Virus genome (UHGV): UHGV-0079647
From: a virus
Length of the DNA: 13,797 nt
Strand: one strand, 5' to 3'
The notes below the pieces were generated by a model. The model had not been told where the DNA came from, ran no database searches, and was given only the letters and a program-made list of their open reading frames with translations. The translations under genes were made by a program, and so were the position numbers. Positions 4,001 through 13,194 of this stretch are shown here, one piece after another. Each line of letters opens with the position of its first letter. Within the stretch, counting starts at the first letter, position 1.

Positions 4001-4577
4001 CTGCTGCCGCCTTAGGTTTTCGACCAGGCTTTTTACGCTGTTTTTCTTCTGGCTCTGACTCCGGCTCTGCAATAGCCGGACGCAAACTCAGGAGTCGTCC
4101 AAGAACATCATTTGCTTCATGACCATCCCACTCTTTCCCGAACTCAAGCTCAGTACCTTCAGGAAGGAACTCGATTTCTTCAACAGGTAGGTGATAAGTG
4201 ATTTCGCCTTCTGGAGTGGTGATACCAGCAATGATCCAGCCATCCCACTCTTCACCGTCACTGTGTTTGCGAGACCACCACGAAAGCTCAGCGTAAGCAT
4301 GCATCAGCGATGAGAAGAGTCGCACTCGGTGAGCGTAAAGCTCGTTAAAAGTGTGATAACCGTCGGACACTTCGCCCATATCAACTGGGGAAGTTTCACC
4401 TCCGCCAACACTCCCAATTTGATCACCAACAAGAGGATCATCAGGAACATCGTCAGGGTGCTTATACCAGCCATTTGCTAAGTGCACAGCTACATCATCA
4501 GGATCAACGGTTTTCGTTTTCAGCTTGCGTCCCCAGATTTTGGTATCTCCGCCAGCCTGAAAAATCATTACGCTCAT
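3978..4577 (-). CDS. Hypothetical accessory protein (199 aa) between coat and gp4; acidic, Trp-rich body with a Pro/Lys/Glu-rich C-terminal tail
   Basis: Start placed at ATG 4577..4575 ([15 protein letters not shown]...) because GGAGA sits 5 to 6 nt upstream and the longer 259-aa track ORF would run through the coat 3' end and the terminator hairpin. Ends with ...[29 protein letters not shown]. Overlaps the gp4 start by 23 nt in another frame. No domain recognised. Confidence 0.6.
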
Positions 4578-4590
4578 TGGTATCTCCAAT

Positions 4591-4612
4591 AGAAAAGGGA
4601 GCCGAAGCTCCC
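4591..4612 (-). terminator. Rho-independent terminator/attenuator hairpin immediately downstream of the coat gene
   Basis: On the minus strand: GGGAGC-UUCG-GCUCCC (perfect 6-bp GC-rich stem, UUCG tetraloop) followed by UUUUCU, 8 nt after the coat TGA stop and directly before the SD of the next ORF. Confidence 0.6.
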
Positions 4613-4620
4613 TCTGGTTA

Positions 4621-5916
4621 TCACGCGGTCTGGTTAGGCAGACCAACACCAATTGCCTCTGGTCGTACAGCACATGCTGAATACCACACAGCAATACGGC
4701 ACTTACCAGACAGAGTATTGATATCACCCTGCGTTGCGAAGATGCCGTTAACACCAATACCAGGAATGCTGAAGGAAGACGTTTTCATACCAGCAAACAG
4801 TTCATGGGTTACCGGGATCGGCTGAGACAGCAGACGGATTGAGTCATCAGCCCAGAACACGTTAGCGGTGGTTGTTGCCACGTTCAGAACGTTTACCGGA
4901 GTGGTATCAGCAAGAGAGGTGTTTACGTTAGCGTAAGCCTTCTCTTCTTTTGTCAGTGACGCGTCATCCAGTGCAATCGGCTTCGGCGTGATTTCGATGT
5001 GAGTACCATCGATCACACGGGTGATTGAGAAAGTCGCATCATCAGTCAGCACGTTCTTCGCCATCTGAGACAGGAATTTCACACCAGTGAAACTGATTTT
5101 GTCGCCGCGCTTAAATCCGGTGGTGGAGGATACGGTCACCGTTGCAACACGGTTGTCGACGTTCTCTTTGTTACCATCGGTATCAAGGGTGTATGCCTGC
5201 GGCTTAAACTTCTGCTCACCAGAAACAGTTACACCAGTAGCGGTTGACTTGGTAACTGCCGGAAGTTTCGGTGAGCGAAGAATTTCATCAAAGCCAGCAA
5301 TCTGACGCTGAATAGTACCGTTGCGATACGCTTCTTCAGGAACGCGCCCAAAGATGTCTCCATCTACCAGGTTGCGGCCTGCTTTGCGGTAATCGTCAGG
5401 GTTCAGGAAGTAACTGATGCCCATATCGCGGTTTAGCTCACGGGAGAACATCAGGCGCTCTGCATCAGACACAAAATCCCAGCCAGACAGGCCAGTAGAT
5501 GGACCAATTGCGCGGGTATCGTGAACAACAAGTGAGCCCATTTCGGTTGCCTGTTTGGCAATTGCTGACTCAATGTTATTCGCCAGTTTTTTGGCGGATG
5601 CCTGGATGCGGCGACGGTAAGAACGCTCATCACGCAGGTCATCTGCACGAAGCTCGAAGAAATCGTTATCCGGATCACCCATGTTGCATTTCACGGAGAG
5701 TTCCAGAATCCCAGTAGCTTTGCCAGTTAAATCCCAGCCAGTCTGAGTTGGCGCTTCCTGCTCAACAGGCATCCACACGGTGTTGCTTGAACGCTGCATG
5801 GATTCTGCCGGAGGGGTGTATTTTGTCACTTTGGACGCCATTGGCGTCAGGTTCTGGACGGTTTCGATGATTTCATCGATAGCGTAAGTAACTAACTGCC
5901 CTTCTTTGAGAGTCAT
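4621..5916 (-). CDS. Major capsid (coat) protein gp5-like (431 aa), HK97-fold coat of P22 type
   Basis: Length (P22 coat is 430 aa as recalled) and strong recalled similarity along the protein (e.g. ...[15 protein letters not shown]..., ...[20 protein letters not shown]..., ...[34 protein letters not shown]..., C-terminal ...[15 protein letters not shown]). Synteny after scaffold. Confidence 0.95.
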
Positions 5917-5942
5917 ATATTGAATACCTTACTTTCTTTATG

Positions 5943-5951
5943 TGCTATACT
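5943..5951 (+). promoter_or_regulatory. Candidate extended -10 promoter element (TGcTATACT) for the plus-strand HNH gene
   Basis: TGnTATACT-like motif in the AT-rich 67-bp spacer, about 33 to 40 nt upstream of the HNH start codons. No well-spaced -35 found (TTGAAT at 5920..5925 is 20 nt away). Sequence-only prediction. Confidence 0.25.
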
Positions 5952-5983
5952 ATTGTTATATCAACATATAGCGCATTAGGGTT

Positions 5984-6505
5984 ATGAGCATGGAACTGAA
6001 TGAATACTTCGAATACCGCGATGGTTCTTTGGTTTGGAAAGCCAGAAGCTCTGAATTTTTCAACAACAAAAAGAATCGCAACTATCACAACGTTTGGAAT
6101 GCAAAACACGCTGGGAAAGTTGCTGGTCTTTTAGAAAGCAATGGATATATCCGCATAAGAATTAACGGCATTAAGTGGCTAGCACACCGCATCGTATGGG
6201 TAATGTTTAACGGAGATATTCCAGAAGGCATGGAAATTGACCATATAAATGGGATTCGCCACGACAACAGAATTGAAAATCTTCGTCTTGTGAAAAAATC
6301 AGCAAACCAAAGGAATAGAATCAAACTATCTAAAAATAACTCCAGCGGAATATCTGGAGTTTACTTTTGCAACACGCGGAAAAGATGGATCGCGCATAAG
6401 CGACTGCTTAATGCAAGAGTGCAAAAAGTATGTTCTTCATTCGAAGAGGCGAAAGAAGTAATCAGAAAGTTTGACGAGGAAAACAACATCACGATATCGA
6501 AATAA
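5984..6505 (+). CDS. HNH-family homing-endonuclease-like protein (HNH_3 type core with an AP2-like C-terminal DNA-binding region), about 171 to 173 aa
   Basis: Only convincing plus-strand gene. Contains HRIVWVMFNGDIPEGMEIDHINGIRHDNRIENLRLVKKSANQRN, matching the His-Asn-His core and conserved Asn of HNH_3 endonucleases, followed by SGISGVYFCNTRKRWIAHK, an AP2-like motif. Gene is visibly AT-rich with AGA/ATA codons, unlike its flanks. Start may be the second ATG at 5990 (AGGG lies 8 nt upstream of it). Confidence 0.85.
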   Translation: MSMELNEYFEYRDGSLVWKARSSEFFNNKKNRNYHNVWNAKHAGKVAGLLESNGYIRIRINGIKWLAHRIVWVMFNGDIPEGMEIDHINGIRHDNRIENLRLVKKSANQRNRIKLSKNNSSGISGVYFCNTRKRWIAHKRLLNARVQKVCSSFEEAKEVIRKFDEENNITISK

Positions 6506-7417
6506 TTATCGAATTCCTTTATTCAGTTGCGCCTTGAGCTTGCGGTACGTCTCTACATCCCCTTTGTTTGCTGCCGCCTCCATCTGCTTTTCAATCGCAG
6601 AGATATTTGCAGCAACAGCGTGTCCCTGAATGGGTTCATCAGGTAGCGGGGCTTCTGAAACAGGTTTGGCTCGAGGCTTGAGAGTTAAACGTTCTGACAG
6701 TCGAGTGAGTTCAATCAACGCGGATTGCCCGTCCATCGCCAGCAACTGGCGTGTTTTTTCAGGATTAGCACCAAGGTGATACATGAGAGCAGCGGATTTC
6801 TCCGGGAAGAGGCGCATGATGTCGGCACCGACTGCTGGCGGCACCAGTTGCATGAATGCATCCTCTTTCTCCTGATAGTCAGGGATATTGAGCTTTTCCG
6901 CTGCGTCGTAGTGCTTACGGGCTGCCTCGACGTATTGCGCTGATTGCTGGGTGAACTCCTGAGTTTTGCGACCCTGCTCGGCGACAGCCTGGCTTCGTGC
7001 GTCCATAGCCTTGATCTGCCATTCACTGTTTGCCTGCTGGAAGGCAGCCAGTGCGCGGCTCTGGTCATAGTCGTACTTAGCCAGTGCATCTTCGGAAAGA
7101 TAATCGTTAGGGTCTGGTTGTTTTGGTAACTCAGGGTTCACCCGCAGGTGCTCCGGCAACTCTCCACGCTTAACCGCTTCCATCTGCTGCTCAAGCTCAC
7201 GCTGGCGTTTGCGTTCGATGCGGCGACGGGCAAATTCAGCATTAGTTGCCGGGTCTTGTTTTGGTTTCTCATCGTCTTTCAGGACAATCTCGAAGCCTTC
7301 TTCCTGACCTGCGTTGTCGTTGGCATTATCGACAACTAAGCCATCAGCAGATGCCGCTGCATGATTGCCGGGCATGGTTAATTCTTCAGAAGCCTGAATG
7401 TCGGTGGTTTGGTCCAT
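6506..7417 (-). CDS. Scaffolding protein gp8-like (303 aa)
   Basis: Same length as P22 gp8 (303 aa as recalled); charged, helical, Glu/Lys/Arg/Gln-rich sequence; recalled similarity including the C-terminal coat-binding helix-turn-helix (...[17 protein letters not shown]). Synteny between portal and coat. Confidence 0.9.
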
Positions 7418-12651: not shown

Positions 12652-13194
12652 TTAATTGGTGAGTCCGGGGATTACGGTTTGCCCGTGCTGTTCAAGGCGT
12701 TCAATTCTCGCCAGTAGCTGAGGCTTCTTAATTTTTCCCCAGCGATTAAGCAGGCGGCCTGACATGCTGGCAACATCCTTCTCTTTCATGTACTCCAGCA
12801 TTACGGCATTTCTCTCTTCTTCAAATTGACGATGACCAACCTGAAGCATGGCGTACATCCAGTTGAATGCGTTGATGTAAGCAATTTTGATACGCATTGC
12901 TTCTTTTTTGGTGTAGGACATAACCAAAAGCATCAACCCATCCTTACGTAGCCGATAGAATTTTTGTGGCTTACCATTCTGTAACTCATTGTTTTTATAG
13001 CAAACCTCAAAATTGAGTTTTGTATCAAACTCTTCAGGACAAGCAGCGATAGTTCTTTCTACATCACGCACAACGTTGTCATGTCGCTTACGAAATGCTT
13101 TCGCCACCATAAATGAATCGGTGACAGGGTCATTGTTGGTAATAAAAACCAGTTCTTTGAAATCAATGCCGTCAACGATAGTTGGATAATTCAT
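12652..13194 (-). CDS. Rha-family phage regulatory protein (180 aa)
   Basis: N-terminal region ...FITNNDPVTDSFMVAKAFRKRHDNVVRDVERTI... matches the Rha-domain consensus core (...iA..fgK.H.nVlRdi...). Location between lysis genes and terS is where rha lies in P22. Confidence 0.75.
   Translation of the reverse strand: MNYPTIVDGIDFKELVFITNNDPVTDSFMVAKAFRKRHDNVVRDVERTIAACPEEFDTKLNFEVCYKNNELQNGKPQKFYRLRKDGLMLLVMSYTKKEAMRIKIAYINAFNWMYAMLQVGHRQFEEERNAVMLEYMKEKDVASMSGRLLNRWGKIKKPQLLARIERLEQHGQTVIPGLTN

Follow-up and report, generated by a model that had tools for sequence, protein, structure and literature searches.

The late (virion) operon of the P22-like phage genome UHGV-0079647 raises a simple question: why does a single gene run against it, between the scaffolding and coat genes, when all of its late genes lie on the minus strand? 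The window analysed here is a stretch of 13,797 nt from this genome. On its plus strand, ORF calling and profile matches define an HNH endonuclease open reading frame (ORF) at 5984..6505 (173 aa plus a TAA stop), antisense between coat and scaffold. It is the only convincing plus-strand gene of the window, as an earlier note, made from the letters alone, had claimed; the same note took it for a recently inserted selfish element. Our analysis suggests that the gene is probably the core of a homing endonuclease cassette, free-standing and specialised for the junction of scaffold and coat in P22-like phages. As delimited by sequence comparison, the putative cassette consists of an I-HmuI-type HNH gene with an AP2-like tail, its own predicted promoter, a ribosome-binding site for the coat gene, and a recoded block of 36 nt at the start of that gene; the nuclease would be active and would spread by homing. 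The gene is already labelled 'HNH endonuclease' in GenBank and the kind of element is well known, but this member is uncharacterised. Our literature search found no description of this HNH gene; Casjens and Thuman-Commike (2011), which lay outside that search, may mention such insertions.

RESULTS

The insert is present or absent at one precise site

The inserted DNA measures 589 bp (5917..6505), as defined by alignment with the empty-site relatives Bas106 (CurroJimenez), IME10, HZ41 and APC_JM3.2. These phages lack the insert, have flanks that are 96-98% identical to the window, and join their two genes directly, the scaffold stop and coat start overlapping as TAATG. The junction alignment thus bears out the idea of an insertion. 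Downstream of the insert in the late operon lies the coat gene (gp5; 4621..5916, minus strand; Pfam P22_CoatProtein, E=3.6e-163), the presumed target gene, and upstream the scaffolding gene (gp8; 6506..7417, minus strand; Pfam Phage-scaffold, E=4.9e-179), which shows no carrier-specific change. The convergent stops of the HNH and scaffold genes abut exactly as had been noticed, with TAA at 6503-6505 for the former and TAA at 6506-6508 (minus strand) for the latter.

Insert length is constant (589 bp) in every occupied E. coli-lineage allele examined. The Escherichia phages Dewey and Louie carry the segment at 99% identity, and their 'HNH endonuclease' is 100% identical to the window protein. 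We found the junction in 217 of 5,426 complete E. coli genomes, 20 of these 217 bearing the insert (~9%); among the best 80 scaffold loci in IMG/VR, 6 were occupied and 74 empty. The site is therefore polymorphic for presence and absence, and the empty allele is intact. Phages with the insert form plaques, and so do their insert-free relatives; Dewey and Louie (with the insert) and CurroJimenez/Bas106 (without it) are E. coli phages from Swiss sewage-plant inflow.

The insert also differs from its surroundings in composition. GC content is 0.37-0.41 across 5850-6600, the minimum of the window at the 300-nt scale, against ~0.50 elsewhere, and by gene it is 0.393 for the HNH ORF, 0.507 for coat and 0.530 for scaffold, so that the gene is indeed AT-rich relative to its flanks. 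None of the findings named in the earlier note as counting against its proposal was made: we found a strong HNH profile match (below), relatives with an empty site and a foreign composition.

Two features of the insert ends were observed in passing. There are two copies of the heptamer TATCGAA around the stop-stop junction (6494-6500 and 6506-6512), and the insert end next to coat, which reads GTAAGGTATTCAATATATG on the late strand (5917-5942), resembles the native scaffold 3' end, AAAGGAATTCGATAATG (6506-6530). The repeat and the resemblance could be the remnant of a duplicated target, or could reflect convergence on a Shine-Dalgarno sequence followed by an AT-rich spacer.

A short block of the coat gene travels with the insert

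The comparison covered distinct haplotypes only, 15 of them occupied and 70 empty. Over the whole scaffold (912 nt) and coat (1,296 nt) genes, the two classes show 14 fixed differences, all of them in coat nt 4-39. This recoded block of 36 nt (5878..5913, minus strand) is the constant companion of the insert; it changes coat residues A2T, N4K and L13I, its other changes being synonymous. Association with the insert is complete through coat nt 39 (r2 of 1.0) and gone at nt 58 (0.001), while on the scaffold side r2 is at most 0.013 from 30 nt on; linkage is close to zero within 20-30 nt on both sides.

At 0.0039, the nucleotide diversity (pi) of the insert is 3-5 times lower than that of its flanks, scaffold (0.0105) and coat (0.020); the same 15 haplotypes hold 10 segregating sites in the insert and 28 and 47 in flanks of equal length. 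Flank diversity is equal in the occupied and empty classes, and divergence between the classes equals the diversity within them. Occupied haplotypes are interspersed among empty ones, one of them having exactly the Bas106 scaffold. The low diversity of the insert, the sharp bounds of linkage and the undifferentiated flanks together indicate that the insert and the 36-nt block behave as one young unit, spread across many older backgrounds.

The claim that the insertion is recent therefore holds for its spread among E. coli phages (0.4% diversity in the insert against 1-2% in the flanks). It does not hold for the association of endonuclease and site, which is old, since orthologues of 82, 74 and 59% identity occupy the same junction in diverged lineages. 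Similarly, the suggestion that neither structural gene is disrupted is roughly true, with the reservation that the first 13 codons of coat are replaced and the TAATG overlap is broken.

In the P22 procapsid, coat N4 is reported to form a hydrogen bond with scaffold S285, and D14, E15 and E18 to bind R293 and K296 (PMC9965877). The insert-linked block turns N4 into K (5905-5913, coat codons 2-4) and retains D14. No compensating scaffold change is fixed in carriers among the haplotypes compared.

An HNH_3 nuclease with an AP2-like tail

The HNH_3-type motif reported for this protein is real. Pfam HNH_3 (PF13392) matches aa 66-110 over nearly its full length (profile positions 2-46 of 46) with E=3.9e-22 and 78 bits, against a gathering cut-off of 24.8 bits, and the motif EIDHINGIRHDNRIENLRLV lies inside this match; four orthologues likewise exceed the gathering score. 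The protein also matches PHROG_99 'HNH endonuclease' (1.3e-50). The catalytic domain can thus be placed at 6179..6313 (plus strand) from the profile match, from invariant columns (D86, H87, D94, N95, N99 and N108 in an alignment of 73 homologues) and from its match to I-HmuI of Bacillus phage SPO1.

Among proteins of solved structure, I-HmuI (1U3E) comes closest in sequence (E=8e-4, aa 35-120; ~29% identity over 83 aligned columns), the DH...N of the window protein aligning with the I-HmuI motif. It is also the top Foldseek match in the PDB for the AF2 model of the window protein (probability 1.0), although the whole-chain TM is just 0.35. The model (pLDDT 89.5) has an HNH core with strands at 83-87 and 100-104 followed by a helix at 105-112, as predicted for the beta-beta-alpha-metal fold of HNH_3 nucleases. 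Both proteins share the DH...N...N motif and have N-terminal strands preceding the HNH core. They differ in context and in their C-termini: I-HmuI is intron-encoded and ends in a helix-turn-helix region, whereas the window gene is free-standing, intergenic and antisense, with an AP2-like tail.

This tail, a putative DNA-binding domain (aa ~121-166; 6344..6481, plus strand), is modelled as three strands (126-129, 134-140 and 145-150) and a helix (153-166). The AP2-like C-terminus proposed earlier finds weak backing in this fold, with Foldseek matches to the AP2 domains 3igm, 6sy0 and 7wq5 (E 0.2-4, probability 0.57-0.87), and falls short in the Pfam sequence score, which is 15.7 bits for AP2 (PF00847) against a gathering cut-off of 33.3, the match covering only profile positions 1-19. 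Because this score is below threshold, we call the tail AP2-like and do not file it under the AP2 family. The five HNH genes found at the junction score 14.8-18.8 bits on the same profile, several more distant homologues carry a precomputed PF00847 match, and many homologues combine AP2 with HNH_3. Magnani and colleagues reportedly described, in 2004, HNH-AP2 homing endonucleases of phages, cyanobacteria and ciliates. These enzymes and the HNH_3 genes of T1-like phages (endZ of Tls), whose products are 40-49% identical to the window HNH, have the same domain order. Their copies are not beside P22-type coat or scaffold genes; the junction is held only by the clade of at least 59% identity and by one further HNH gene, described below.

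Comparison with the 82% orthologue gives a dN/dS of 0.06, equal to that of coat, and argues strongly for purifying selection and a retained function. In one E. coli prophage copy (strain EEC_W5, CM130020; L332:1288-1810) a 1-nt deletion upstream of the catalytic motif (TTTAAC to TTTAC) splits the ORF into 85 and 102 aa, either through real decay or through an assembly error. In a tblastn search, the HNH protein hit two places each in Dewey and Louie (PQ850600 / PQ850616), which are thereby reported to carry a putative second HNH_3 paralogue outside the region that matches the window.

Related genes at the same junction and a recurrent target signature

Orthologues that are 82, 74 and 59% identical to the window HNH, found on metagenomic contigs from diverged lineages, each lie antisense between P22-type scaffold and coat genes. 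The coats of these loci are 89, 72 and 69% identical to the window coat. At another locus (L218:2410-2973), a different HNH gene encoding 178 aa occupies the same junction in the same orientation; it is 43-44% identical to the HNHs of the window and of the 74% orthologue locus (L008), and the scaffold in its background is 98% identical to that of L008. A further 32 related loci of this lineage are empty, with TAATG. The homologous site has thus been held by related endonuclease genes in diverged hosts. With the exception of the L218 gene, homologues below ~50% identity are not found beside P22 coat or scaffold genes; T1-like and other phages hold such homologues in abundance. GC content is low in the HNH genes of all lineages (0.39-0.45).

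The same lineages point to a candidate target. Coat codons 5-7 read GAAGG(G/A)CAG in every occupied allele and GAAGG(T/C)CAA in 119 of 120 distinct empty alleles. In other words, a purine at coat nt 18 together with G at nt 21 marks all 17 distinct occupied alleles, which come from five occupied lineages, and a pyrimidine at nt 18 with A at nt 21 marks the empty ones (119/120). The carrier allele is therefore altered at the presumed recognition site, and the flanking block appears to have been converted along with the insert; that these changes block cleavage is what we infer.

The window block is foreign to its coat gene and matches the native coat N-terminus, MTLKEGQ, of a lineage resembling loci L007 and L252. 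Locus L252 (IMG/VR 3300036796_000004; 1440-1580) is empty, with TAATG, and natively encodes a carrier-like coat N-terminus, yet has GGC CAA at the diagnostic codons. The window block therefore looks like donor flank from such a lineage, and judging from these alignments L252 is likely to represent the donor-lineage type of the travelling block.

Further searches marked out the range of these genes. A scan of GTDB species representatives with the orthologue alignment returned only relatives of at most 41% identity, none of them beside P22 capsid genes. Searched with Megablast, the junctions of L008 and L013 had no match among deposited phages, to which their coats are no more than 73% and 68% identical, respectively, and an IMG/VR scan with the L013 scaffold found nothing.

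The insert brings expression signals for both strands

A probable sigma-70 promoter of the HNH gene lies at 5920..5951 (plus strand), over the translation-initiation region of coat, where such a promoter had been suspected. We located it by manual reading and by conservation: it pairs TTGAAT (5920-5925) with an extended -10 element, TGCTATACT (5943-5951), and would be active in driving the HNH gene. The -10 element is conserved across four diverged orthologous loci (TGCTATAAT in L007 and TGCTATACT in L008), and L013 has a canonical TTGCAT-N17-TATAAT. With its 20-nt spacer, this promoter escaped a generic scan. An alternative HNH start codon, ATG at 5990, is better spaced than that at 5984 from an AGGG Shine-Dalgarno sequence.

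Read on the minus strand, the spacer between the promoter elements contains GTAAGGT (5926..5932), a replacement Shine-Dalgarno sequence 10 nt upstream of the coat ATG. Its context at the coat-proximal end of the insert, GAAAGTAAGGTATTCAAT(AT)ATG, is conserved in four lineages. In empty alleles, coat initiation is served by AAAGGA inside the scaffold 3' end and by the TAATG overlap; the insert breaks this native coupling of scaffold stop and coat start and brings a new Shine-Dalgarno sequence. Late transcripts must traverse the insert in antisense.

Could the recoded coat 5' end compensate for RNA structure in the initiation region? Folding did not support this, since a chimera without the recoding (-10.1 kcal/mol, P(unpaired) 0.58) is, if anything, more open than the real allele (-16.3 kcal/mol, 0.50).

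Several hairpins were considered as further signals. Within the HNH ORF, an 8-bp inverted repeat at 6338-6361, which codes for NSSGISGV, gives the late strand a hairpin of -13.4 kcal/mol that has a T-run and resembles a terminator. We rejected it as a conserved terminator or attenuator, since L008, L013 and L218 lack it and L007 has a weaker version; it is probably incidental. A plus-strand terminator-like hairpin at 6737-6751 was rejected as part of the cassette, being present in 85 of 86 loci (at most 2 mismatches), empty ones included. At the far end of the HNH gene, the stop-stop arrangement TAATTA is common to the window, L007 and L008, and the stops are separated by spacers of 11 nt in L013 and 27 nt in L218, both with hairpins. 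That of L218 is GGCAC-AATAA-GTGCC and that of L013 is GC-rich and spans the scaffold stop; they may be terminators of the HNH transcript, and the window is without them.

Other features of the window

The late genes of the minus strand are, in order, gp7, a gene for a DUF2824 protein, needle, gp10, gp4, two small ORFs, coat, scaffold, portal, TerL and gp3. Beyond gp3 lie a DUF2560 gene, a gene of the gp49/66 family, a Rha gene and Rz. The interval between coat and gp4 (4073-4620) is a second variable slot. In the window it holds the two small minus-strand ORFs (4088..4300 and 4304..4474), which lack a Pfam match. Other small ORFs fill the slot in relatives, with 138 nt in Dewey and 231 nt for Bas106; APC_JM3.2 has 267 nt and, in addition, an annotated repeat. 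The Rha/ORF11CD3 regulatory-protein gene (12652-13194, minus strand), between the lysis and terminase genes, has the second-lowest GC content of the window (~0.38-0.41) and looks like another acquired gene.

DISCUSSION

We propose that the cassette spreads much as the seg and mob genes of T4 do in 'intronless homing' (PMC2988022). When a carrier and a related non-carrier genome meet in one cell, the enzyme would nick or cut the non-carrier around GAAGGTCAA in codons 5-7, at or beside the conserved 5' end of coat. Repair by recombination, with the carrier as template, would then copy in both the 589-bp insert and the recoded block. The carrier itself would be protected in two ways, by the insert that splits the junction and by the changed wobble positions of the target (GGT CAA to GGG CAG).

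The parallels in T4 are close but not complete. The mobA-mobE genes are intergenic HNH genes that target a conserved neighbour and co-convert flanking markers, and some insertions bring signals that serve the expression of the adjacent host gene (PMC2988022). The mob genes are, however, all oriented with their neighbours and often promoterless, and their cleavage sites can be hundreds of bp away (PMC2988022). Unlike them, the window gene is antisense, has its own predicted promoter and resides in a temperate host, and its linked block ends less than 40 nt from the insertion point. Its orientation is matched by segD, the sole T4 homing endonuclease gene that opposes its neighbours; segD, too, adjoins the major capsid gene, in the interval from gene 23 to gene 24 (PMC2988022). 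The likeness ends there: segD is an uncharacterised gene for an enzyme of the GIY-YIG type and has no identified promoter (PMC2988022).

A number of observations weigh against homing as the explanation. The divergence of the HNH genes (82, 74 and 61% identity) roughly tracks that of the flanking coats (89, 72 and 69%), which also fits long vertical residence with occasional loss; given this parallel, we take long residence with loss and regain to be part of the history. The sharp bounds of linkage could stem from the generally high recombination of mosaic phages and not from nuclease-driven conversion. One empty allele has CAG at codon 7, so nt 21 alone need not confer immunity. The low GC content in all lineages, despite an old association with the site, is unexplained, and the AP2 score of the presumed DNA-binding tail falls short of the Pfam threshold. 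Finally, cleavage, target and biased inheritance are all deduced from sequence comparisons.

Among the other explanations, the one that survives best overlaps with homing. The nuclease may have been co-opted as a weapon, made in a resident prophage while the late operon is silent, so that incoming or co-resident P22-like phages without the gene are cut at the start of coat and either excluded or converted. A benefit of this kind to the carrier would explain the purifying selection, and why one site has been retained while capsids diverged deeply. In line with it are the antisense orientation, a conserved predicted promoter that does not depend on late transcription, the low dN/dS (0.06) and the fact that the gene has stayed at its site in lineages whose coats are as little as 69% identical. 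There is also a reported precedent for an endonuclease in phage-phage competition (PMC11620839). Carriers nevertheless make up only ~8-9% of loci, which is low for a clearly beneficial trait, and one copy of the gene (L332) is possibly frameshifted. We consider this role unlikely. If it is real, temperate phages would have domesticated a homing endonuclease for use against one another, and the cassette would be a prophage-encoded system of exclusion and conversion.

A passive passenger seems more doubtful still. Here the nuclease would be inactive or irrelevant, and its presence or absence the product of ordinary recombination and occasional deletion in mosaic phages. Linkage disequilibrium does decay very fast everywhere in the scaffold and coat genes, HNH divergence parallels that of the flanks, and the possible frameshift in L332 would suit a gene without a role. 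A mere passenger should not, however, combine a dN/dS of 0.06 with invariant catalytic residues, nor be 3-5 times less diverse than its flanks. Nor does it account for the recurrence of the same synonymous target changes in five lineages, or for two unrelated HNH genes at the same site in near-identical backgrounds.

We give very little credence to the idea that the recoding and the insert serve to adjust coat translation or the scaffold:coat ratio, the nuclease being incidental. Such tuning could act by translational uncoupling, by antisense RNA or through the hairpin at 6338-6361, and the broken TAATG coupling, the new Shine-Dalgarno sequence and the terminator-like hairpin on the late strand (6361..6338) would all lend themselves to it. 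Yet the initiation region is open without recoding in the folded chimera, the hairpin is not conserved in L008, L013 and L218, and 90% of relatives manage without the insert.

Small, conserved HNH proteins of the HK97 gp74 type, encoded in the head-gene region next to terminase, act together with terminase and are required for packaging in cos phages, and P22-type phages package by a headful mechanism. The window HNH is likewise small and encoded among head-morphogenesis genes, ~3 kb from the terminase genes, but we rejected a packaging role as scarcely credible on optionality and position: the gene is absent from ~90% of close relatives, near-identical Bas106 and IME10 are viable without it, scaffold and portal separate it from TerL, and an HNH_3/I-HmuI type with a DNA-binding tail, a different HNH subfamily, typifies homing enzymes.

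A homing cassette at this junction would matter in several ways. The linked change at coat N4, a residue that contacts scaffold in P22 (PMC9965877), is relevant to the engineering of P22 capsids. The comparative data predict a target of ~36 nt with two recurrent diagnostic wobble positions, and near-isogenic cultured partners exist with the insert (Dewey and Louie) and without it (CurroJimenez/Bas106). This puts the mapping of the target, immunity and super-Mendelian inheritance within direct reach of experiment. By bringing its own ribosome-binding site, an element can come between two translationally coupled genes without harm, as this locus also illustrates. To our knowledge, the understanding of homing endonucleases in phages comes almost entirely from the lytic T4-like and SPO1-like groups; the element described here would provide a compact example of the homing type in the best-studied assembly operon of a temperate model family.

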